A DNA stretch of 64,000 bases from Candidatus Methylomirabilota bacterium (lineage in GTDB: Bacteria; Methylomirabilota; Methylomirabilia; Rokubacteriales; CSP1-6). Of this stretch, positions 1 to 13,334 are shown in pieces. A program made the position numbers and the translations under genes. A model generated the notes under the pieces. It searched no databases and had not been told where the DNA came from. It saw only the letters and a list, made by a program, of their open reading frames with translations. How positions within the stretch are numbered: the stretch's first letter is position 1; every line of letters starts with the position of its first letter. Location of the stretch: NCBI GenBank assembly GCA_036001065.1, contig DASYUQ010000077.1, positions 12,299-76,298 on the forward strand. The letters are read 5' to 3'.

Positions 1-1148
1 GAGCACTGCCAGCACAGGTGGCGCTGCGGGTAGTTCACGGCGCCGCAGTCGGCGCACTTCTGGCCGTAGAGCCGAAGGTTCTGCCGTTCCTCCCGCACCA
101 GCGTCGGGACGCTCGAGAACGAGCGGATGACCTCGGTGTCGACGTGGCGGCGGAATCGCAGGAACTTGCCGTAATGCCCGAGCGCCCGGCCGGCGGCGAG
201 CTGCCCGCCCACGGGCCGCGGGGGGCGGAAGCCAGCGATCGCATCCGTCGCCTCGAAGAGCAACGCCTCCGCCCCGTTGCCGTACGACACCACCAGGATC
301 TGATCGTGAGGCTTCGCCTCCTCCATGACGGAGGCCAGCTCCAGCAGGCAGGAGGCGGCACCCGTGTTGCCGGCCCGCCCGATGACGGGCTCCCCGGGCA
401 CCGCGGCCTCGGGAAACTTCAGCTGGCGGACCAGCGCCGCGTGGGTGCGGGCATCGGGGCCGTAGAGCACGAGCCTGGCGACGTCCTCCCGCTTCCGACC
501 CGTTTTCCGGAGGAGCCCGTCGATGGCCTCGGGGATGTGCTTGTCGAGCCCGTGAGCCTTGATGAACGTCAGATCGGGCAGTGACTGGACGTAGCGCTCG
601 CCATCGTTGCGCCAGAAATCGGTGAACTCGTGGCTGGCCGTGAATGCTCCCTCGAAGGAGGCGATGACGTCGGCGGTCCCGATCAGCGCCGCGCCGGCGC
701 CGTCGCCCACGAGCATCTCCAGCTCGCCGCCGGGCGCGACCGGCCGCATGTCCGCCGCCGCCACCAGCGCCTCGGCCGCCGAGCCCGCCCGCACCGTGTC
801 GAGCGCCAGACGGAGCGCGGTGGTGCCGCAGCGGAGCGATCCCCCGAGATCGGCAGTGAGCACGCCCGCCCCCAGGTCGACGACGCTGGCCAGAAGCGTG
901 GCGCTGGACTTCTCGACGTAGGGCGCGGAGGTCGAGGCGAAGAAGCAGGCGCCGATGCCGGAGACGGCGCGCGCGCCGATGGCGTTGAGGGCCGCCTCGC
1001 AGGCCATGGTAAGGGCGTCCTCGTCGTAGTTGGCCACGGCGCGCCCGCCGCCGCCCCCGCCCCACACCTGCGCGACCGTCTGGCCCGACAGCCGGTAGCG
1101 CGGCACGTAGCCCCCCACGCTCACGAGACCGATCTTCGGATCAGCCAT
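1..1148 (-). CDS. HMG-CoA synthase-family condensing enzyme fused to a C-terminal DUF35 Zn-ribbon/OB-fold domain (5' ATG at 1148, 3' end cut by window start)
   Basis: Minus-strand translation from ATG at 1148 gives MADPKIGLVSVGGYVPRYRLSG...ANYDEDALTMACEAALNAIG...ACFFASTSAPYVEKSSA...LRCGTTALRLA. This matches HMGCS hallmarks (ANxDEDS(I/L)TMA, FATES-like, C-G-(G/T)-T-A-L). The C-terminal part visible before the window edge (YGQKCADCGAVNYPQRHLCWQC) is a DUF35-type C4 Zn ribbon. The gene is not in the ORF track because it runs off the window. It sits 14 bp downstream of the CoA-transferase stop. Confidence 0.6.
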   Translation of the reverse strand, partial: MADPKIGLVSVGGYVPRYRLSGQTVAQVWGGGGGGRAVANYDEDALTMACEAALNAIGARAVSGIGACFFASTSAPYVEKSSATLLASVVDLGAGVLTADLGGSLRCGTTALRLALDTVRAGSAAEALVAAADMRPVAPGGELEMLVGDGAGAALIGTADVIASFEGAFTASHEFTDFWRNDGERYVQSLPDLTFIKAHGLDKHIPEAIDGLLRKTGRKREDVARLVLYGPDARTHAALVRQLKFPEAAVPGEPVIGRAGNTGAASCLLELASVMEEAKPHDQILVVSYGNGAEALLFEATDAIAGFRPPRPVGGQLAAGRALGHYGKFLRFRRHVDTEVIRSFSSVPTLVREERQNLRLYGQKCADCGAVNYPQRHLCWQC

Positions 1149-1162
1149 GGGTGATGTCTCCA

Positions 1163-3040
1163 CTATCCAAGGAAATACCGCCTCGGATCGAAGAGCCGGA
1201 TGAGCCGCAGCTCGTCCGGCGTCGGGGGATCGAAGCGCCGCAGGGCCGGGGCGACCTTCAGCTCCCAGCCGCACGCCTCCCGCGCAGCCCGGACGGCTTC
1301 CGCCTCGGGCGGCCCCGCCAGGACGCCCGTCAGGATCAGCTCGGAGCTCTCGTCGGGCTTCTCGTACACGCCCCGGTCCGACACGACGGTCGTGACGCGC
1401 GTGCCCGGCGCCGTGATGTACGGCGCCTTGTCGACGAAGCGCTCCCGGCTCTGGGCCAGCGTCACGACGACCTCCCGCGCCGACGAGGCGATGTCGTTGG
1501 CTCCGCCCGAGCCCGTGATGTACAGGGTCCCCGGCACGATGGTCGAGTTGATGTTGCCGTGCTTGTCGATCTGCCCCGCCGCCAGCGAGCCGAGGCAGCG
1601 GTTCTCGCTCCCGCCCATGAAGATGCCCATAACGTGGAAGATGTCGGTGAGCATCTTGGACGACGGGAAGTTGCGGAACGAGAAGACGAACGGCTCGGCC
1701 GGGCGCGGCAGATAGCCGACCATCCCCGTCTCGGCCATCAGCTCCACGTCGACGCCGGCGGCCTTCAGCTCGTAGGCGCTGAGCCAGGCGGCCAGGTTCG
1801 AGTTGCCCACGCCGGCCAGGAAGGCGCGATAGCCCCGCGCCCTCACCTTCTCGCCGAGCAGGCGCGCCGCGGCCACCACCATCATCTCCGCTGCGGTGAA
1901 GCCGCCGTCGGCGGGAATGGCGGGCGCGAGCATCTCCAGCTCCCAGACCCAGGCGTCGGTGTGGGCGCGGCCCTTGACCTCCATCAGCCGCTGGTAGCCC
2001 AGCCGGGCGACGTAGGCCCCCTGGTCCGGCACCTCCAGCATCCACTCCTTGATCCAGGCCTCCGCCGTCTCGCGCTTCCGGAAGGCGCGGCGCAGCGTGA
2101 GGATGAAGTCGAGGTCCTCCGCGTATCCCTCCAGCTCGGCGACGTTCATGCCGTACATCCCGGCGGGATGGGCCCCGAACGGCGCCTCCACCACGGCCGC
2201 GACGTACTGTCCCGGCAGTCGCACCAACGGGGCGTGGCGGCGGATGAACTCGGTCGAGACGACCTTCTCGACGCTGACGATGGCGCCCCCGCGGGCGGCC
2301 ATCGCCGCGTAGAAGTTCTCGTTGAGGGGCGCGGCGGCGAGGACGTTGCCGGCGCGGTCGGCGGCCCAGGCGTGAAACAGCGCCACATCCGGCTTGAGCG
2401 AGCGCACGAACCCGACCCTTCGAGCGCCGGCTCCGCCGGCACAACCCTCCGATGGGGAGGTTCGGAGGGGGTCGTGAGGCCCTCTCTGACTAGGGATCTC
2501 GGAGGGGGCCGTAACGTCCGCCCCCTCCGAAAAAAACGGGTCGGGGGCGGCGAGGAAATCGCCATCGCGCGCGTTGTCCTCCTCCATCGAGGAGCCGAGC
2601 AGCGAGCGCGTGGGCATGAAGGGCACGCCCAGCGCGCCCCCGATCAGCCTGAGCGGCATCGTCAGCATCGACCAGTTCTGGACGGCCACCTGGCCGCCGA
2701 GCACGGCGCGGCCGACCAGCGGCTGGGGCGTCGGATAAGGATAGCCCTCGCCGATGAAGGTCGTGACGAGGCGCTCGACGAGGCCGCCCACGACGAACGC
2801 CGTCCAGGGCGAGCCGAACCCGGTCATCGCCAGCGTCCAGCCCGGCCTCCGGCCCCACCACTGGCGGATCACCTCTCGCACCAGCGCGTTCGGGCGGCCG
2901 TGGGCGGCGCCCAGGTAGATGGTCTGGCGCGGCGCGATCAGGCGCCGCACCGCCTCCTCCAGGGTCGTCACCTTGTCCGGCCCTTCGGTGGGCGGCAGCG
3001 CGAGGCGTCGCCCGATCAGCTCCGCGTAGTCCGAGCGCAT
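1163..3040 (-). CDS. Family I CoA-transferase, fused alpha-like + beta-like subunits (GctAB/AtoDA-type), with an about 39-aa in-frame repeat-derived insertion
   Basis: 625-aa ORF. The C-terminal half carries the beta-subunit catalytic-glutamate motif (GGSENRCLGSLAAGQIDKHGNINSTIV). The N-terminal half resembles the alpha subunit. Residues about 168-207 (PFFSEGADVTAPSEIPSQRGPHDPLRTSPSEGCAGGAGARRVG) are encoded by repeat copy A. Confidence 0.65.
   Translation of the reverse strand: MRSDYAELIGRRLALPPTEGPDKVTTLEEAVRRLIAPRQTIYLGAAHGRPNALVREVIRQWWGRRPGWTLAMTGFGSPWTAFVVGGLVERLVTTFIGEGYPYPTPQPLVGRAVLGGQVAVQNWSMLTMPLRLIGGALGVPFMPTRSLLGSSMEEDNARDGDFLAAPDPFFSEGADVTAPSEIPSQRGPHDPLRTSPSEGCAGGAGARRVGFVRSLKPDVALFHAWAADRAGNVLAAAPLNENFYAAMAARGGAIVSVEKVVSTEFIRRHAPLVRLPGQYVAAVVEAPFGAHPAGMYGMNVAELEGYAEDLDFILTLRRAFRKRETAEAWIKEWMLEVPDQGAYVARLGYQRLMEVKGRAHTDAWVWELEMLAPAIPADGGFTAAEMMVVAAARLLGEKVRARGYRAFLAGVGNSNLAAWLSAYELKAAGVDVELMAETGMVGYLPRPAEPFVFSFRNFPSSKMLTDIFHVMGIFMGGSENRCLGSLAAGQIDKHGNINSTIVPGTLYITGSGGANDIASSAREVVVTLAQSRERFVDKAPYITAPGTRVTTVVSDRGVYEKPDESSELILTGVLAGPPEAEAVRAAREACGWELKVAPALRRFDPPTPDELRLIRLFDPRRYFLG
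2420..2537. repeat. GC-rich palindromic repeat element, copy A (forward orientation), inside the CoA-transferase CDS in-frame
   Basis: Sequence: ttcgagcgccggctccgccggc...gatggggaggttcggagggggtcgtgaggccctctctgactagggatctcggagggggccgtaacgtccgccccctccgaaaaaaa. It is near-identical to copy B (32414-32520) and shares 5' and 3' modules with copies C, D, E and F. Internal hairpins: GCCGGCtccGCCGGC and TTCGGAGGGGG...CCCCCTCCGAA. Confidence 0.65.
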
Positions 3041-3046
3041 CTTTCC

Positions 3047-3394
3047 CTAGCGTGGTGAGAAGATGCGGGCCTTGATCCGACCCGGCACCCAGCCGGCCAG
3101 CAGGTGGGCCGCCCGCGCCAGCCGCTCCAGCGACGCGGCGCTCCCCGGCCAGTACTTGAGCAGCAGGGCGCGGTCGACGTAGTTGAGGATCCCGTCGAGG
3201 ATGATCGCCGCCAGCAGGAGATCGTCGAGGTAGCCCAGGAACGGGATGAAGTCGGGGATCAGGTCGATGGGACTGGCCAGGTAGACCGCCGCGGCGGCCA
3301 GGGCGATCTTGGCCGGGCGCGGCAGTACCGGGTCGCCCACGAGCCGGGCGATCAGCCGTACGAGGTCGGGCAGCGCGCGCAGCAGCTCCTTCAC
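3047..3394 (-). CDS. DUF1232 (YkvA-like) small membrane protein
   Basis: 115 aa with the DUF1232 signature PIDLIPDFIPFLGYLDDLLL and hydrophobic segments. Its start ATG overlaps the upstream gene's stop (ATGA). Confidence 0.55.
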   Translation of the reverse strand: MKELLRALPDLVRLIARLVGDPVLPRPAKIALAAAAVYLASPIDLIPDFIPFLGYLDDLLLAAIILDGILNYVDRALLLKYWPGSAASLERLARAAHLLAGWVPGRIKARIFSPR

Positions 3395-5376
3395 TCCAGG
3401 CTCTCCGCCACCAGCTCGCTCACATCTTTGACTTGAAGTCGCTCCTCGGCCCCCTTGACCTTACGGCCCAGGTCGATCATCGCCAGGCAGAAGGGACAGG
3501 CGGTGCCCACCATGGTCGCCTCGGTCTCCAGGGCCTCCTCCACCCGGATGATGTTGACGCGCTTCCGGGACTTCACCTCCATCCACATGTGGCCCCCGCC
3601 CCCGCCGCAGCAGAGCCCGCGTTCGCGGTTGCGCGGCATCTCGATGACCCGGAGACCGGGAAGCGCGCGGGCCACGGCCCGGGGCGCCTCCATGATGCCG
3701 TTGTAGCGTCCGAGATAGCAGGAGTCGTGGAAGGCCAGCGTCGCGTCGAGGGCCTTTTTCGGCTTGATCCGGCCGGCGGCGAGCAGCTCGTTGATGACCA
3801 CCGAGTGGTGGACCACCTCGTAGGTGCCGCCGAACTGGGGGAACTCGTTCTTGATGGTGTTGAAGCAGTGGGGGCAGTGGGTGAGGACCTTCCGGAAGCG
3901 GTACCGGCCCAGCGCCTCGACGTTCTCCTGCTGCACGGTCTGGTACAGGTACTCCTCGCCCAGCCGGCGCGCGACCTCGCCGTGGCAGCGCTCCTCCGGC
4001 ATCACCGCGAAGGACACGCCGGCCGCTTTGAGGATCCTCACCACGGACCGCGCGATCGACTGGTTGCGCTTGTCGTAGGAGGCGGAGCAGCCGACCCAGT
4101 AGAGGTACTCGACCTCTTTGCCCGGCTCCATGAGCGGCACGTCGAGCCCGTGCGCCCAGGCCAGCCGCTCGCTGGCCGGCAGCCCCCAGGGGTTGCCCGC
4201 CCGCTGGATGTTCTGCAGCGATTGCGGCGCCGTCGACGGGAGAGCGCCCTCCGACAGCGCCAGATACCGGCGGAGGTCGATGATGGTGTCGACGATGTCG
4301 ATGAAGGCCGGGCACTCCTGCACGCAGGCCATGCAGGTCGTGCACGCCCACAGCTCCTCGGCCTTGATGAGTTGGCCGTGGATCGGTCCGGGCAGCTCGC
4401 CGTGCAGGTGCCGCTTGAGCTTCACGATGATCTGCTTGGGGGATAGCGCCGTGCCCGCCATGTAGGCGGGGCAGACCGCCTGACAGCGCCCGCACTCCAC
4501 GCACGCGTCGAAGTCTAGCCGTCGCTTCCACGAGAACTCCTCGAGCTTCGAGATGCCGAACGACTCGGCCTCCTCGATGTTCTCGATCTTGGGGATCTCG
4601 CCGCGGGGGCCGAGCTTCGAGAAGAAGATGTTCAGCGGCGTGGTCAGGAGGTGGACGAAGTAGGAGTAGGGGATGACGGCGACGAAGGCCAGGGAGATCG
4701 CCGCGTGGAACAGCCAGGTCCCCAGATGGAGCGCACGCAACGCGCCCTCCGACATCCCGGCCGCCAGCATCGTCCGCCCCAGCGCCCAGCCCACCGGCGA
4801 CCACGGCGCCCACGCCGGCTCGACGACGGCCAGGCGGCAGGCCTCCATGATGAAGCCCGTGAGGTTGATCACGAAGAGCAGGGCCAGCACGCCGGCGAAG
4901 CGCGCCGTGGGATCGAGGCGATCCGGGCGCGCGACGAAGCGCCGCCCCACCGCCATGCCGAGCCCGATGACGAAGAAGAGCCCGAAGAGGTCGAGCACCG
5001 TCTCGTAGAAGAGGTAGAACGGCCCCTGGAGCAGCTTCACGTCGAAGAGCGGCAGCGTGATGTCCCAGTCGATGGTGGCCAGCACGGTGCCCATGAAAAG
5101 GGCGAGGAAGCCCCAGAATATGATCGCGTGCATGACCCCCGGATAGGCCTGGGAGAGTGTGCGGGCCTGGCCGAGCGCGTGCACCAGCACGAGCTTGACG
5201 CGTTCGGGAACCCGGTCGAATCGGTCCTGGGGGCGGCCGGCGCGCCACAGCCGGACGCGCTGCCACATACCGTAGACGAAGACGGCGACGGCCGCGAGGG
5301 CGCCGGCGTAGAGCGCGATCTGAGCCCAGGCCGGAACATTCCAGAAGGTGTCGCGGAACGGAATCTGTCCGGTCAT
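3391..5376 (-). CDS. Membrane-anchored iron-sulfur oxidoreductase: NarI/DsrM-like polytopic N-terminal domain + two 4Fe-4S ferredoxin motifs + two CCG (HdrD/DsrK/GlpC-like) cysteine-rich domains
   Basis: True start is ATG at 5376 (MTGQIPFRDTFWN...), overlapping the meaB stop as ATGA. The track ORF 3391..5925 carries a spurious 183-aa Arg/Gly-rich N-terminal extension. About 5-6 predicted TM helices are followed by CVECGRCQAVCP and CTTCMACVQECP, then the CCG motifs WVGCSASYD and LCCGGGGGHMW...CPFC. The architecture matches DsrMK/HmeCD-type and the membrane FeS oxidoreductases (DUF224) that accompany EtfAB in syntrophs. Confidence 0.65.
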   Translation of the reverse strand: MTGQIPFRDTFWNVPAWAQIALYAGALAAVAVFVYGMWQRVRLWRAGRPQDRFDRVPERVKLVLVHALGQARTLSQAYPGVMHAIIFWGFLALFMGTVLATIDWDITLPLFDVKLLQGPFYLFYETVLDLFGLFFVIGLGMAVGRRFVARPDRLDPTARFAGVLALLFVINLTGFIMEACRLAVVEPAWAPWSPVGWALGRTMLAAGMSEGALRALHLGTWLFHAAISLAFVAVIPYSYFVHLLTTPLNIFFSKLGPRGEIPKIENIEEAESFGISKLEEFSWKRRLDFDACVECGRCQAVCPAYMAGTALSPKQIIVKLKRHLHGELPGPIHGQLIKAEELWACTTCMACVQECPAFIDIVDTIIDLRRYLALSEGALPSTAPQSLQNIQRAGNPWGLPASERLAWAHGLDVPLMEPGKEVEYLYWVGCSASYDKRNQSIARSVVRILKAAGVSFAVMPEERCHGEVARRLGEEYLYQTVQQENVEALGRYRFRKVLTHCPHCFNTIKNEFPQFGGTYEVVHHSVVINELLAAGRIKPKKALDATLAFHDSCYLGRYNGIMEAPRAVARALPGLRVIEMPRNRERGLCCGGGGGHMWMEVKSRKRVNIIRVEEALETEATMVGTACPFCLAMIDLGRKVKGAEERLQVKDVSELVAESLE

Positions 5377-7461: not shown

Positions 7462-8268
7462 CTAGCGAACGGTCACCATCACCGGCTTGGCGAACATAAT
7501 GTGCCCCGACGGACCACCGCCACCACCTCGCGGCAGCACCGCGCCGGTCGGCGTCGTCACGGTGCCCACGGACGAGGCCTTCTCGGAGCCGTAGTGGAAG
7601 GCGGCGGTGATCGAGTACGTACCGGGCTCCTGCGGGGCCTTCACGGCCCACACGACCTTGCCCTCGGCCGGCTTCCGGGCGGCCAGATCAGTCTTCTGAT
7701 CGAAGATGACGACGCTATTGAGGTTCTTCTTGAGTCCGGCCGCACGGCTATCCACCCACTTGGTCTGCTCCTGGCCATCGCCGCCCCACGCCTTTGGAGG
7801 ACCGACGATCAGCCAACCGTCGCCCTGGACCGGTCGCGCCTGGAAGCGGAGGTCGGTGTCGACCAGGAACACCCCGACGGCCCCGTGGCCCCCCTTGACC
7901 GTCACCGTGATCTGGGTCTCCTGACCCGGTCGGAGGCTGGTCGGGGCGCTGAGGTTCACCGAGGCGAGCTCGTCCATCAGCTTGACGTCGGCCAGCAGCT
8001 TCTGGCGGTCGGCGGGCTGCATCTGCTGATAGGGGCCCGCGCCATCCTCGATGGCCTTGTAGTGCTTGTTCTCCTTGACCTGGCTGTTGGCGAACGCCTC
8101 CGGCTCGTTCCGTAACTGGTCCTTGGAGACGGACGAGTGGCAGGCGGCACACGTCGGGGCGAGATCGGTAACGTTGCGCAGCGGCCCGCCATTATAGGCG
8201 GCAGCCGGCGGCACGCCGAAGGGAAGCAGCATTGCTGCGAGGCCGAGAACGCTGGCAAATCGTTTCAT
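7462..8268 (-). CDS. Secreted monoheme c-type cytochrome-domain protein
   Basis: True start ATG at 8268 (MKRFASVLGLAAMLLPFGVPPAAAYNGG...) with a GGGGGA RBS. It has a signal peptide, a single CAACH heme motif about 20 aa after the cleavage site, and an about 220-aa C-terminal domain. The upstream 149 aa of track ORF 7462..8715 is an Arg/Ser-rich artefact. Confidence 0.55.
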   Translation of the reverse strand: MKRFASVLGLAAMLLPFGVPPAAAYNGGPLRNVTDLAPTCAACHSSVSKDQLRNEPEAFANSQVKENKHYKAIEDGAGPYQQMQPADRQKLLADVKLMDELASVNLSAPTSLRPGQETQITVTVKGGHGAVGVFLVDTDLRFQARPVQGDGWLIVGPPKAWGGDGQEQTKWVDSRAAGLKKNLNSVVIFDQKTDLAARKPAEGKVVWAVKAPQEPGTYSITAAFHYGSEKASSVGTVTTPTGAVLPRGGGGGPSGHIMFAKPVMVTVR

Positions 8269-8326
8269 CAGGTTTCCCCCGTGACAGCGAAGTGCACTGC
8301 AGTCCAACCCGACACTGATAAACCGA

Positions 8327-8821
8327 TCACCGGTAATGCCGGTTCCCCCGCGACGCCGCGCTCCGGCTGTCCCCCCCCAGGCTCGCCTCCATGACCAGCG
8401 CGTCCTCGCCCGTGTCGTAATAGTAGCCGCGGCGCCGCCCGACGACCCGGAAGCCGAACGACTCGTACAGCGCGCGCGCTTCGGCGTTGCTGGGCCGGAC
8501 CTCCAGGACGACCAGCCGCAGCGCCCGTCCGCGGGCCTCGTCGAGCACCTGACCCAGCAGCGCCCGCCCGATCCCCCGTCGGCGCGCGGACGGGTGCACC
8601 GCGATGTTCGTGATGTGCAACTCGTCCGCGACCTCCCACAGGCAGACGTAGCCGACGAGCCGGCCGTCCTCGCGGATGACGTTGCAGCGCGCCACCCGGT
8701 TCTGCTCCATCTCATAGAGGAAGGCGCCCCGTGACCAGGGCATCGAGAACGAGGCGCGCTCGATGGCGAGCACCTCGTCGAGATCGGCCGGGCTCATCCG
8801 CTCAGTGGACAGTGACGCCAC
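8327..8821 (-). CDS. rimI: Ribosomal-protein-alanine N-acetyltransferase (GNAT)
   Basis: GNAT motifs (ITNIAVHPSARRRGIGRALL) and a conserved tsaB-rimI gene pair. The probable start is ATG at 8797 (MSPADLDEV...). The track start at 8821 is GTG overlapping tsaB. Confidence 0.7.
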   Translation of the reverse strand: MASLSTERMSPADLDEVLAIERASFSMPWSRGAFLYEMEQNRVARCNVIREDGRLVGYVCLWEVADELHITNIAVHPSARRRGIGRALLGQVLDEARGRALRLVVLEVRPSNAEARALYESFGFRVVGRRRGYYYDTGEDALVMEASLGGDSRSAASRGNRHYR

Positions 8822-9517: not shown

Positions 9518-10231
9518 GTGCGATATAATACGCCCGGGAGGAAGCGGATGAGTGCCGCGCCGAAGAACGATCCCGCCGCCGTCGAGGTGGAGGTCCGTGA
9601 AAAGATCCACCTCGAGATCCTCAAGCGGACGGGTGCCTACCACGCCAACGACCACGTGCTGCTGCCCTCGGGGCAGCACACCAGCGAGTACATCGAGAAG
9701 ACGCTGGTGACGACGGAGCCATCTTTCACCGAAGGGCTCGGCGCCGTCATCGCCAAGCACTTCGCCCAGTGGCCCGTCGATGCCGTGCTCTCCACTGGTC
9801 CGGGCGCCCTCATCCTCTCCCACTGCGTGGCGCGGGCGCACCCTTCACGCCCGATTGTCGTTTATGGCACGAAGGGACTGTCCGGTGGCAAGCGGCGGGT
9901 CACGCTGCCCGTCGAGTTCCAGCGCCTGATCCGGGAGGGCGCGCGCGTCCTGCTGATCGAAGACCTCGTCAGTACCGGCACCACGCTCGACCTCCTGATC
10001 AACCTTGTCGAGCAGTTGGGCGCCGAGGTGGTGGGGATCGGGTGCCTTTGGCGCCGCACGTCTGTGCAACTGAACGGCAAGCCAGTCTTCAGTCTGGTGA
10101 GCAGGGACTTTCCGACCTACGATCCGTCAGATTGTCCTCTATGTAAAAGGGGAATACCACTGAACGAAGAGTTCGTCCGGAGGCGGCACCTGCGGCGTCC
10201 CTCGACCGTACAGGAGCCTAAGACCCCGTAG
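9518..10231 (+). CDS. Phosphoribosyltransferase, orotate-PRTase (PyrE)-like, with C-terminal CxxC tail
   Basis: PRPP-binding motif RVLLIEDLVSTGTTL, and LPSGQHTSEYIEK resembles the PyrE hood region. C-terminal DCPLCKRG. A possible later start is at 9548 (MSAAPKND). Confidence 0.5.
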   Translation: MRYNTPGRKRMSAAPKNDPAAVEVEVREKIHLEILKRTGAYHANDHVLLPSGQHTSEYIEKTLVTTEPSFTEGLGAVIAKHFAQWPVDAVLSTGPGALILSHCVARAHPSRPIVVYGTKGLSGGKRRVTLPVEFQRLIREGARVLLIEDLVSTGTTLDLLINLVEQLGAEVVGIGCLWRRTSVQLNGKPVFSLVSRDFPTYDPSDCPLCKRGIPLNEEFVRRRHLRRPSTVQEPKTP

Positions 10232-10284
10232 TTCCGGCCTTTCAAGCTGTCCGGCCAAGCCCCGCCTCGTCTGTCACCAGGTCT

Positions 10285-10300
10285 TGGCACCCCTCTTGCG
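10285..10300 (+). promoter_or_regulatory. Sigma-54 (RpoN) -24/-12 promoter
   Basis: TGGCACccctcTTGCG matches TGGCAC-N5-TTGCW exactly. It lies 47 nt upstream of the ATG at 10347. Confidence 0.5.
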
Positions 10301-10346
10301 TAGTCACCGTGAGGCGAAACTTCTGGCATCGCCCGAGAGGTGCCTA

Positions 10347-11099
10347 ATGTATAGGCAGGCAATCCCGCTCCTCGGTCTCGTTCTCTCGCTCGCGGTCACG
10401 AGCCTCGCGGACGCCGAGCCGGTGACGGTCCTGTTTCCGGAGGGCGTGACGCGGGCCTTCCCCATCCTACGCTCCATGGACAACGAAAAGCTCGCCCAGG
10501 GTGACCTCAGCCAGGTCGTGCGGGGTGACAAGGTTTACAGCCGCCTGGTGTTCCGCTTCAAGGACGGTTCGATCTACGACGAGAGCGTCGTCTTCACCCA
10601 GCGCGAAGTATTCACCCTCCTGAGCTACCGCATTGTGCAGAAGGGCCCCTCTTTCCCGGAGACGCTGGAGGCGGCCATCGACCGGGACACCGGACGCTAC
10701 CAGGTCCGCTACCGCGCGGACGAGGACAGCCCCGAAGAGGTCCTCACCGGAAAGTTCGCGCTCCCCGACGACGCCTACAACGGGATGCTCTTCCTGATCG
10801 TGAAGAACCTGCCCGCGCGGGCCGGGGAGACGGTTTCGATAGTGGCGTTCACGCCGAAGCCGCGGGCCGTGAAGATGCAGCTCCTGCCGGTGGCCGAAGA
10901 TCGCATGCTGGTCAGCGACTCGCCGATGCAGGCCACCCGCTATCACATCCGGCCGCAGCTCGGCCTGTTCGCCTCGCTCCTGGTGGCCGACATCCCCGAT
11001 CTCCGCATGTGGATTCTTCCCGGGGAGGCTCCGGCGTTCCTGCGCGCGGAGGGTCCGCTCTACTTCATGGGGCCGGTCTGGAGGATCGACCCCTACTAG
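10347..11099 (+). CDS. Secreted hypothetical protein (signal peptide, no lipobox)
   Basis: Start at the second Met of the track ORF (MYRQAIPLLGLVLSLAVTSLADA|EP). There is no recognisable catalytic motif. The local GC is lower than surrounding DNA. Confidence 0.5.
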   Translation: MYRQAIPLLGLVLSLAVTSLADAEPVTVLFPEGVTRAFPILRSMDNEKLAQGDLSQVVRGDKVYSRLVFRFKDGSIYDESVVFTQREVFTLLSYRIVQKGPSFPETLEAAIDRDTGRYQVRYRADEDSPEEVLTGKFALPDDAYNGMLFLIVKNLPARAGETVSIVAFTPKPRAVKMQLLPVAEDRMLVSDSPMQATRYHIRPQLGLFASLLVADIPDLRMWILPGEAPAFLRAEGPLYFMGPVWRIDPY

Positions 11100-11196
11100 A
11101 TTCCTCGGAGGGGGGCTTCGCCCCCCTTCCGAAACCTCCCCCCAGGATCCATTGCGCGGGCTAAGCCCGCGCTCGAGCCGGCCGCCCCCAGAAACT
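11100..11196. repeat. GC-rich palindromic repeat element, diverged copy F (reverse orientation), between convergent genes
   Basis: cggaggggggcttcgccccccttccgaaacctccccccaggatccattgcgcgggctaagcccgcgctcgag parallels copies D and E (cggagggggcctcggcggccccctccgaggcctcccccagga..gatggcgccggcggagccggcgctcgaa). The terminal hairpin is kept by compensatory changes (GCGCGGGCtaaGCCCGCGC versus GCGCCGGCggaGCCGGCGC). Confidence 0.5.
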
Positions 11197-13017
11197 TCAG
11201 GCGGCTTCCCACAGCCCTTCGGCGACGCCGGCGCTCTTGTAGGCGGCTCGGATGCGATCGAGGTTCTGCGTGAAGAGGAGCCCGATCTTCGCGAACGGCT
11301 CGAAGACAGGACCCTGGCCCTCGATCAGCGGGAAGCTGACATTGGGGAGCTTGCCCCACTGGGCGCGCAGCGCGATGTTCACGGTCGCCAGGCGCGCGTA
11401 GAACTCCTCGCGCTCCTTCGCCGCGCGCTTGACGATCGGCGTGATCAGGCAGTCGATGGTCTGGCGCGCCCGCGCCGCCGCGCCCTCGACGGCCGCCTCC
11501 GCCAGCGGCACCACCGTCACGCCCAGCTCGCCCAGGAACCGCTGCAGGAGCCGACCGACCGATTCCTGGAGCAGCACCTCGGGCAGCCCGACCGTCTTCA
11601 GCTCGCGGTGGCCGATCTGCGCAGCCTCCGCGTACAGCTGGTCGCGCAGCCACTGCACGTAGGCGCGGTTCTCCTCGTCCTTCCACCACTGCTTGATCAT
11701 CTTCTTGCCCCAGTAACGGATGGCCACGTAGTAGAGGTCCCGCTTCCAGAGCTTCTTGGCGATCCCCCGCCAGGAGTAGAACTTGGCCATCGCATCGATC
11801 GCCCCCGTCTGGAGCTCGTAGGGCGACATCCGCCGCGGCTGGTGGACCGTGTGGTGGCCGTCGTAAAAGGACCAGTTCCGGTTGATGACGTACTTGTCGC
11901 CCTTGGCGTAGAGGGTGTCCCAGTCGGGCGAGCCCGGGATCGGCGTGAGGATCATGAACTGCACGGAGTCGATGTCGTGCTTCAGCGCGAAGTCGGCGGT
12001 CGCGTCGATCGTCTCGAGGTCGTCCTCGTCCGAGCCGACCACGAACATGCCGTGGATCCGGATTTGGTGGGCGTGGAAGCGCTCGATCGACCGCTCGATC
12101 TTGGCCAGATCCTGCTTCTTCTGGAAGAGCTTGAGCGTGCGGGGATTGATGGACTCGAACCCCACGTACACATTGAAGCAGTTCGAGTCGCGCATGAGCT
12201 CGAGAAGCTCGGGATCGTCCACCGTCTCGGTGCGCACCTGGGCGCCCCACTGGGGCGTGAGCCCGCGCTCGATCATCCCCCGCAAGAGCTCCTTCACGCG
12301 CTTCTTGTTGGCGGTGAAGATGTCGTCGGCGAAGAAGGTGTAGAGGTTGCCCTTGTGCAGCGTCAGCTCCTCCAGCACCCGCGCGACCGAGTGGGTGCGG
12401 AAGGCGTGACCGTACATCCCCGGCACCGAGCAGAAGGTGCAGGAGAAGGGGCAGCCGCGGGAGGTGGCGATGGAGATGACCCCGCCCGGCTTCCAGCCGG
12501 TGATGAGCTGGTAATCGGGGATCGGGTTCACGTCCAGGTTGGGGATCTTCGGGCGCTCGGGGTTGTGCACGGTCCGGCCGTCCGCCTGGTACGAGAGATT
12601 CTGGATCTTCTCGAACCCCTCGCCCCGCTGGATGGCGTCCACCAGCTCCTGGAAGGCGGCCTCCCCCTCGCCCCGGACGACGAAGTCTCCGTGGGCGAGC
12701 CCTTCGTCGGGCATGAAGCTCGTGTGGGTGCCGCCCAGCACGACGATCCCGCCCGCCTGCCTCACCTGGTCGGCGAGGCGATACGACTGGGGGGCCGTGG
12801 AGGTGATGGCGGAGATGCCCACCAGATCGGCCGCGAGCACCTCCGCCATGTCCACGGGTTGGATGTCCTCGATGTAGACGCGGACGTCGTATCCCTTGCT
12901 CCGCATGATCGTGCCCAAGAGCACGGAGCCGAGCCGCGGAATACACACCCGGGTGTACACGTGGAGGTGCGTGGACTTCGGCTCGACAAACACGAGCTTC
13001 TTGAGCGCTCGCTTCAT
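11197..13017 (-). CDS. Cobalamin (B12)-binding domain radical SAM enzyme (class B) with about 180-aa C-terminal extension
   Basis: Start ATG 13017 (MKRALKKLVFVEP...) with RBS GGGGAG. N-terminal B12-binding fold (DLVGISAITS...IVVLGGTHTSF) and CPFSCTFCSVPG (Cx3Cx2C), then a Trp-rich C-terminal extension reminiscent of DUF4070. Confidence 0.75.
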   Translation of the reverse strand: MKRALKKLVFVEPKSTHLHVYTRVCIPRLGSVLLGTIMRSKGYDVRVYIEDIQPVDMAEVLAADLVGISAITSTAPQSYRLADQVRQAGGIVVLGGTHTSFMPDEGLAHGDFVVRGEGEAAFQELVDAIQRGEGFEKIQNLSYQADGRTVHNPERPKIPNLDVNPIPDYQLITGWKPGGVISIATSRGCPFSCTFCSVPGMYGHAFRTHSVARVLEELTLHKGNLYTFFADDIFTANKKRVKELLRGMIERGLTPQWGAQVRTETVDDPELLELMRDSNCFNVYVGFESINPRTLKLFQKKQDLAKIERSIERFHAHQIRIHGMFVVGSDEDDLETIDATADFALKHDIDSVQFMILTPIPGSPDWDTLYAKGDKYVINRNWSFYDGHHTVHQPRRMSPYELQTGAIDAMAKFYSWRGIAKKLWKRDLYYVAIRYWGKKMIKQWWKDEENRAYVQWLRDQLYAEAAQIGHRELKTVGLPEVLLQESVGRLLQRFLGELGVTVVPLAEAAVEGAAARARQTIDCLITPIVKRAAKEREEFYARLATVNIALRAQWGKLPNVSFPLIEGQGPVFEPFAKIGLLFTQNLDRIRAAYKSAGVAEGLWEAA

Positions 13018-13334
13018 GAGTGGTTTCTCCCCGGTTGAAGAGGCCAGAGAATTTCGCAGATGCGCCAACGCTATCACCCGCCTCCGCGGCTTGTCAACGT
13101 ACGCCTGCCCCCTTCTCCCCTAAATATGGTGTTCACGACCCGTCCGGAACCCCCGTATGTTGGATTTGGGGCTTGACAGGATTTCCGGGCCGGCTCTAGC
13201 ATGCCGGTGACGCGCGTCATGCCGCAAGGGAGGTGAGCCGCGCCCTCGAGGCGACCGGCCCTCTCGGCCTTGCGTTCCGGCAGGGCCGCACCCTCTGATG
13301 ATACTGAGTGGGGCGACCCCCCTCAGACCCTGAG

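Follow-up and report, generated by a model that had tools for sequence, protein, structure and literature searches.

What drives transcription of a gene for a predicted exported protein that sits among housekeeping-type genes of Rokubacteria, and what might this protein do? Both questions are raised by a 64-kb stretch of contig DASYUQ010000077.1 from a Candidatus Methylomirabilota bacterium of the Rokubacteriales (hereafter the window, to which positions refer), in which a -24/-12 element of the sigma-54 type precedes the gene of a 250-aa protein. Rokubacteria are abundant uncultured soil bacteria. Sigma-54 promoters have the consensus TGGCACG-N4-TTGCW and are activated by bacterial enhancer-binding proteins (bEBPs). 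Based on sequence comparison, we consider it likely that a sigma-54-dependent promoter at 10285-10299 controls a single-gene transcription unit, whose product would be an exported, EipB/DUF3108-like envelope protein.

Conservation of the -24/-12 element

An earlier note on this DNA had claimed an ideal -24/-12 element, and both its letters and its spacing agree with this claim. The -24 box TGGCAC (10285-10290) and the -12 box TTGC (10296-10299, followed by G10300) are separated by the 5-nt spacer CCCTC. Exactly 10 nt lie between GG (10286-87) and GC (10298-99), which is the canonical sigma-54 spacing, and the core matches TGGCAC-N5-TTGC at 10/10 positions. Only one exact match to this core, and the sole intergenic one, was present in the window (0.03 expected; at least one match in 3/100 shuffles). 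When one mismatch was allowed, or GGCAY-N5-TTGC was used, extra sites appeared at 356/357 and 30898, both within coding regions; 357 and 30898 were rejected as other sigma-54 sites of the window because they are intragenic.

The element lies 36 nt ahead of the Shine-Dalgarno sequence and ATG of a gene on the same strand, with a 46-nt gap between the end of the motif (10300) and the ATG at 10347. Sigma-54 transcription begins 11-13 nt 3' of the -12 GC. By this geometry, the predicted leader would be 36 nt long and contain the Shine-Dalgarno sequence GAGAGG (10335-10340), six bases 5' of the ATG. A search of Rfam revealed no relevant RNA element in the leader or the intergenic regions, and the fold of the 5' untranslated region (5'UTR) in the window had no significance (z -1.5).

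To define related loci, one genome per species was scanned, and the best 80 of 303 loci were kept (L001-L080), mostly from Rokubacteria/Methylomirabilota and Nitrospirota. The promoter scan was anchored on the start of each orthologue and covered 300 nt upstream, with GG-N10-GC elements scored against TGGCAC-N5-TTGC. Among the 29 closest Rokubacteria loci (~215 kb, both strands), 22 matches of at least 9/10 were found, 19 of them directly 5' of the orthologue, whereas the background for such matches was 0.004 per 80-nt window (0.024 per 100 nt for matches of at least 8/10). The syntenic set comprised 23 loci from other species with the phosphoribosyltransferase (PRTase) gene immediately upstream, and all 23 contained GGCA[C/T]-N5-TTGC, 34-71 nt 5' of the start codon. 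The spacer, the 60 nt upstream and the leader (15-45 nt in orthologues, Shine-Dalgarno sequence included) could not be aligned between lineages. Because the boxes are kept while spacer and flanks diverge, selection appears to act on the two sigma-54 contact boxes, as predicted.

Consensus bases that the scan did not require were conserved as well. A T follows TTGC in 20/23 loci (background T 0.18, p = 1.6e-12), and a G follows GGCAY in 14/23 (p = 0.002). In addition, 10 further distant homologue loci in non-Nitrospira genomes had -24/-12 elements, several of the form TGGCAG-N5-TTGCA. Since it is kept in every related genome examined, the promoter is almost certainly real, and this phylogenetic footprint backs the proposal of a functional sigma-54 promoter before a secreted protein.

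A separate feature of the leader was noticed in one subclade (L015, L021, L023, L024, L027 and L036), where a conserved 5'UTR hairpin, CCTGAACCCGG...CGGGTTCAGG, lies between promoter and ATG. Its 3' arm enters the Shine-Dalgarno sequence AGGAGG, and pairing is preserved by G-U substitutions in L015 and L027. This hairpin may serve translational control or act as an mRNA stabiliser; it is absent from the leader of the window itself.

The predicted exported protein and its fold

The earlier note had also described the product as a signal-peptide protein, and a signal peptide is indeed present by sequence. The protein begins with MYRQAIPLLGLVLSLAVTSLADA, followed after the predicted cleavage site by EP. 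This N-terminus is of the signal-peptidase-I type, with a positive n-region, a hydrophobic core and an A-x-A site, and the homologue alignment shows A-x-A, with xP[VI] after it, to be conserved. No lipobox was found in the window protein, and its Cys count is 0. In the AlphaFold2 (AF2) model, residues 5-18 form an N-terminal helix of low pLDDT. Two JGI contigs encode an identical protein, for which independent gene callers pick the same start.

The claim that the protein has no recognisable domain stands for Pfam and NCBIfam, neither of which gave a match (Pfam at E up to 10), but it does not extend to the fold, as the model is a beta-barrel similar to EipB/DUF1849, YmcC and DUF3108. We found 2,405 homologues, the closest named ones from Candidatus Rokubacteria. 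With an E-value limit of 0.001, a profile search of 1.84 billion representatives returned 1,706 clusters, in which a typical protein has a single domain and a length of 250-290 aa. The same kind of search against PDB sequences gave no matches. The window protein itself did not match DUF3108 (PF11306; YmcC fold, PDB 3FZX and 2IN5) even at E 10. Only one of its 21 close homologues did, weakly (E 0.013), as did 9/60 diverse family members (best E 1.1e-5). The family is likely to be a distant branch of the DUF3108 superfamily; with respect to PF11306, it would at best count as a remote sister family that the current Pfam model does not cover.

The AF2 model (pLDDT 79.5, pTM 0.74) has the 14-strand beta-spiral fold that characterizes DUF1849/EipB, and Brucella abortus EipB (PDB 6NTR) was the top-ranked Foldseek match (E 7e-5). 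In the fold comparison, the eukaryotic axonemal protein CATIP (ciliogenesis-associated TTC17-interacting protein; PDB 9FQR chain Xh) scored 16.1, followed by EipB/DUF1849 with 13.3 (191 residues), PA1994/DUF1089 with 10.2, YmcC with 9.5, and small porins, LolA and LmcA with about 8. CATIP is 5-8% identical to the window protein and has the fold alone in common with it, from which no function can be transferred. Envelope integrity depends on EipB, a protein secreted to the periplasm whose 14-strand beta-spiral encloses a largely hydrophobic lumen and has a conserved disulfide, C69-C278 (bioRxiv 10.1101/551135). Unlike EipB, the window protein is cysteine-free and so lacks this disulfide, and neither it nor 21 close homologues matched PF08904 (DUF1849) at E up to 10. 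Only Alphaproteobacteria have DUF1849 proteins, in contrast to the family studied here, which occurs in Methylomirabilota and Nitrospirota. Judging from the model, the window protein may work like EipB, but it is not a member of DUF1849, because both the disulfide and any PF08904 signal are absent. LolA, LolB, LprG and LmcA, which carry lipids and lipoproteins in the periplasm, differ more strongly: the structural match is much weaker, the barrel of the window protein is larger and there is no sequence relationship. Thus, neither sequence nor a strong structural match places the window protein in the LolA/LolB superfamily.

Several observations bear on the location and function of the protein. 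In one account, DUF3108 is a barrel of the YmcC fold in the outer membrane (PMC4364669), and in a quantitative proteomic study of a gonococcal mlaA mutant, a DUF3108 protein was listed beside MlaC among the raised proteins (PMC6424457). An MlaC gene adjoins a paralogue of the window protein in another Methylomirabilota genome (see below) and is also found near five Nitrospira orthologues. In Nitrospira, an overlap between the start of the orthologue and the stop of an AI-2E family transporter gene points to translational coupling; such loci are L075 (2730-7854) and at least 12 more. Genes for a Crp-family regulator, MlaC and an outer-membrane beta-barrel protein follow within 3 kb. The product could instead be an integral outer-membrane beta-barrel and not a soluble periplasmic EipB-like protein, as has been described for DUF3108 proteins; we regard the integral barrel as a minority possibility that deserves to be kept in mind. 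A role in the envelope, perhaps one connected with lipids, is what we consider most plausible for the window protein.

Sigma-54 machinery and competing explanations

No enhancer-binding protein had been noticed near the gene, and this holds for the whole window: regular-expression searches for GAFTGA and the RpoN box, together with tblastn using a Rokubacteria bEBP, revealed no RpoN box, GAFTGA motif or bEBP AAA+ domain in the 64 kb. Therefore, the activator would act in trans, as had been proposed, and a bEBP was found elsewhere, in a Rokubacteria metagenome-assembled genome (MAG). For rpoN, metagenomes were scanned for a high-GC RpoN-box coding pattern, and the RpoN of a soil contig (L149) was then used as query. 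It showed 89-91% identity to six proteins named by NCBI as 'RNA polymerase sigma-54 factor [Candidatus Rokuibacteriota bacterium]', all of which contain the Sigma54_AID, CBD and DBD Pfam domains. Thus, the concern that the genome might lack rpoN is answered at the phylum level by conserved RpoN in Rokubacteria MAGs. Another candidate source of Rokubacteria RpoN, L096, was rejected as belonging to Gemmatimonadales. Tetranucleotide composition (TETRA) did not discriminate Rokubacteria contigs among 120 RpoN-box metagenome loci, and a look-up of exact-sequence RpoN clusters returned ambiguous 'Binatia' labels, to which a caution about mislabelling applies. Our literature search found no paper describing sigma-54 regulation in Rokubacteria.

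A complete sigma-54 module, from a bEBP through a paralogue of the window protein, was identified at 38-4693 of L026, which comes from the same Methylomirabilota MAG (GS_EKS_MAG_00053) as the syntenic orthologue L022. Its features are listed together with those of the window in Table 1.

Table 1. Positions of the features discussed, in the window and in locus L026
Feature	Position	Strand	Remarks
Window: predicted sigma-54 promoter	10285..10300	+	Exact consensus; kept in 23/23 syntenic orthologue loci
Window: predicted 5'UTR	10311..10346	+	From sigma-54 geometry; +1 placed at ~G10311 (C10299 as -12)
Window: coding sequence, 250-aa predicted exported protein	10347..11099	+	ATG and Shine-Dalgarno sequence; start shared by independent gene callers
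Window: predicted signal peptide, residues 1-23	10347..10415	+	Predicted cleavage after A-D-A
Window: GC-rich hairpin, candidate bidirectional terminator without U-tract	11105..11132	+	-25 kcal/mol, z -1.9; weak evidence
L026: bEBP	38-2365		775-aa GAF/Sigma54_activat/HTH_8 protein with ESELFGHERGAFTGA (GAFTGA type)
L026: palindromes	2411, 2431		Two copies of TGCGGAATCGCA
L026: -24/-12 element	~2496		TGGCGT-N5-TTGCT, TGGCGTGTGCTTTGCT
L026: small membrane open reading frame	ATG 2550		First in operon
L026: open reading frame	~2983-3234		Weak Frankia_peptide (PF14407) match
L026: MlaC homologue	3231-3935		Adjoins paralogue of window protein
L026: paralogue of window protein			Last gene of operon

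Two Rokubacteria MAGs have a second paralogue with no sigma-54 element. A conserved palindrome, CGATATAGG-TT-CCTATATCG (L004, 3905-3935; L009, 3872-3902), lies ~60-100 nt upstream of it and probably serves another regulator as operator.

Several points weigh against a sigma-54-controlled, EipB-like envelope gene. The -11 base of the element is G, where the consensus has T or A and 20/23 orthologues have T. The earlier note had advised looking upstream for palindromes bound by a bEBP, and this yielded neither an inverted repeat (10000-10360) nor another conserved enhancer site. In a codon alignment of 24 PRTase genes, there was no drop of synonymous variation over the last 150 nt that would mark an upstream activating sequence (UAS) in the 3' end; by third-codon-position entropy, this end was if anything more variable. 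The L026 palindrome (TGCG-N4-CGCA) was absent near the window promoter and its orthologues. The evidence for rpoN and bEBPs is at the phylum level and comes from genomes other than that of the window, and none of the 34 Nitrospira-labelled orthologue loci (0/34) had a sigma-54 element. Read-through from the PRTase gene is possible, as the terminator scan between the two genes was negative. Finally, the function is assigned from a loose gene neighbourhood and from a similarity in fold to proteins with 5-12% sequence identity, and the hallmark disulfide of EipB is missing.

A UAS can lie far from its promoter and changes in sequence as its activator does, and for this reason we regard the missing enhancer as a gap rather than a contradiction. 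The Nitrospira result implies that sigma-54 control is specific to the Methylomirabilota lineage and not intrinsic to the family. Compared with canonical sigma-54 promoters, the element departs in its -11 base, the lack of a detected upstream enhancer site and the lack of a bEBP in the window. On the other hand, it agrees with them in GG/GC spacing, the full core match, intergenic position, orientation, leader length (15-45 nt) and cross-species conservation, and sigma-54 and bEBPs exist in the phylum.

With regard to the signal, the nitrogen, stress and development triggers suggested previously are generic and have no specific support. Membership of the promoter in the nitrogen (NtrC) regulon is unlikely: the general association of sigma-54 with nitrogen speaks for it, but no NtrC-like or other inverted repeat was found upstream, the neighbours are not nitrogen genes, the paralogue-linked activator of L026 lacks a response-regulator receiver domain and has GAF domains as sensors, and the product is of an envelope type.

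It is also possible in principle that sigma-54 holoenzyme forms a poised or occluding complex at this site, or that the site is one of two promoters, so that basal expression comes from another promoter and sigma-54 merely modulates it. In Salmonella, many sigma-54 binding sites are reportedly not classic promoters, and the absence of an enhancer site and of a nearby activator would fit such a role. However, the site lies between genes in the correct orientation, its distance from the Shine-Dalgarno sequence and ATG is constant and promoter-like in all orthologues, and no sigma-70-like or other alternative promoter was detected in the scan of 10000-11300, a negative result that is weak because Rokubacteria sigma-70 consensus sequences are not known. 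This explanation is therefore rather improbable. Least probable is a chance motif, in which case the gene would have a sigma-70-type promoter that escaped recognition or be transcribed by read-through out of the PRTase gene. The weak sigma-70 scan would permit this, and so would the lack of a canonical terminator in the consensus scan of 10000-11300, which included the interval from the PRTase stop (10231) to the motif. Presence in 23/23 syntenic loci against a background of at most 0.02 per 100 nt, conservation of unselected consensus bases and a hairpin after the PRTase stop, 5' of the element, in L007, L011 and L028 argue to the contrary.

Gene neighbourhood, proposed mechanism and meaning

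The gene order of the window is conserved in ~22 Rokubacteria loci: TsaB (-), the PyrE-like PRTase (+), the target gene (+), a B12-binding radical SAM (rSAM) gene (-), NrdR and SHMT (-). The neighbours are housekeeping-type genes with 83-97% identity between loci, compared with 59-90% for the target. A single-gene unit is supported by these neighbours in conserved synteny (PRTase upstream, B12-rSAM convergent) and by the hairpin after the stop. This hairpin lies directly 3' of the stop codon, between the convergent target and rSAM genes; the consensus terminator scan did not detect it.

The patch of lower GC content reported in the earlier note is real, although it is mild and has no evolutionary meaning. 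The coding sequence has 65.6% GC (6th percentile) against a window mean of 69.7%, and 10001-10400 has 60.8%. GC content at third codon positions (GC3) is 0.89, similar to that of the neighbours. Horizontal acquisition, considered because of the low GC, was rejected: native-like GC3 and phylum-wide synteny indicate that the gene is neither part of a foreign island nor recently acquired.

Some additional observations were made in this region. In 20 Rokubacteria loci, the B12-binding rSAM gene (11197-13077, -) is kept as a neighbour of the target. The highest NCBIfam scores of its product (BchE 148, HpnJ 140 and PhpK 137 bits) are far under every family cut-off. A 417-aa protein encoded at 7462-8715 (-) has only weak Big_3_5 and choice-of-anchor V matches and is poorly conserved, being present in just 3 related loci. 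L005, L006 and L008, whose record titles name Binatia, Acidoferrum and Gemmatimonadetes, show full Rokubacteria synteny and orthologues of 66-73% identity; these contigs are probably mis-binned or mislabelled in their MAGs.

Taken together with the model, the sigma-54 reading would work as follows. Sigma-54 RNA polymerase would bind the -24 GG and -12 GC boxes and form a closed complex that is inactive at first. Activation would require ATP-driven remodelling of this complex by an AAA+ enhancer-binding protein, whose gene would lie at another place in the genome. Transcription would start near 10311 and yield a leader of ~36 nt with its Shine-Dalgarno sequence. The Sec pathway would export the 250-aa product, which would be cleaved after residue 23. 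In the periplasm or at the outer membrane, it would adopt the fold of an EipB/DUF3108/YmcC-like beta-barrel ('beta-spiral'). Its most likely task there would be to handle a hydrophobic component of the envelope, such as a lipid or lipoprotein, or to support envelope integrity in another way.

No concept is changed by these results, as the promoter type and the fold class were both already known. They provide a high-confidence, phylum-wide member of a sigma-54 regulon that was found by comparative genomics alone, a defined promoter for work in heterologous hosts and an anchor for locating the cognate activator. They also flag, for envelope biology, a large uncharacterised family of predicted exported proteins with an EipB/DUF3108-like fold. 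A bolder and still speculative view, which we hold only tentatively, is that this family, which forms ~1,700 clusters at 50% identity and is found mostly in Methylomirabilota and Nitrospirota, is an undescribed, widespread factor for handling envelope lipids or lipoproteins and a partner of Mla- or AI-2E-type transport. In Rokubacteria, a dedicated sigma-54/bEBP circuit for envelope remodelling would have this factor as its conserved output. If true, this would extend sigma-54 control of the cell exterior to an uncultured phylum.
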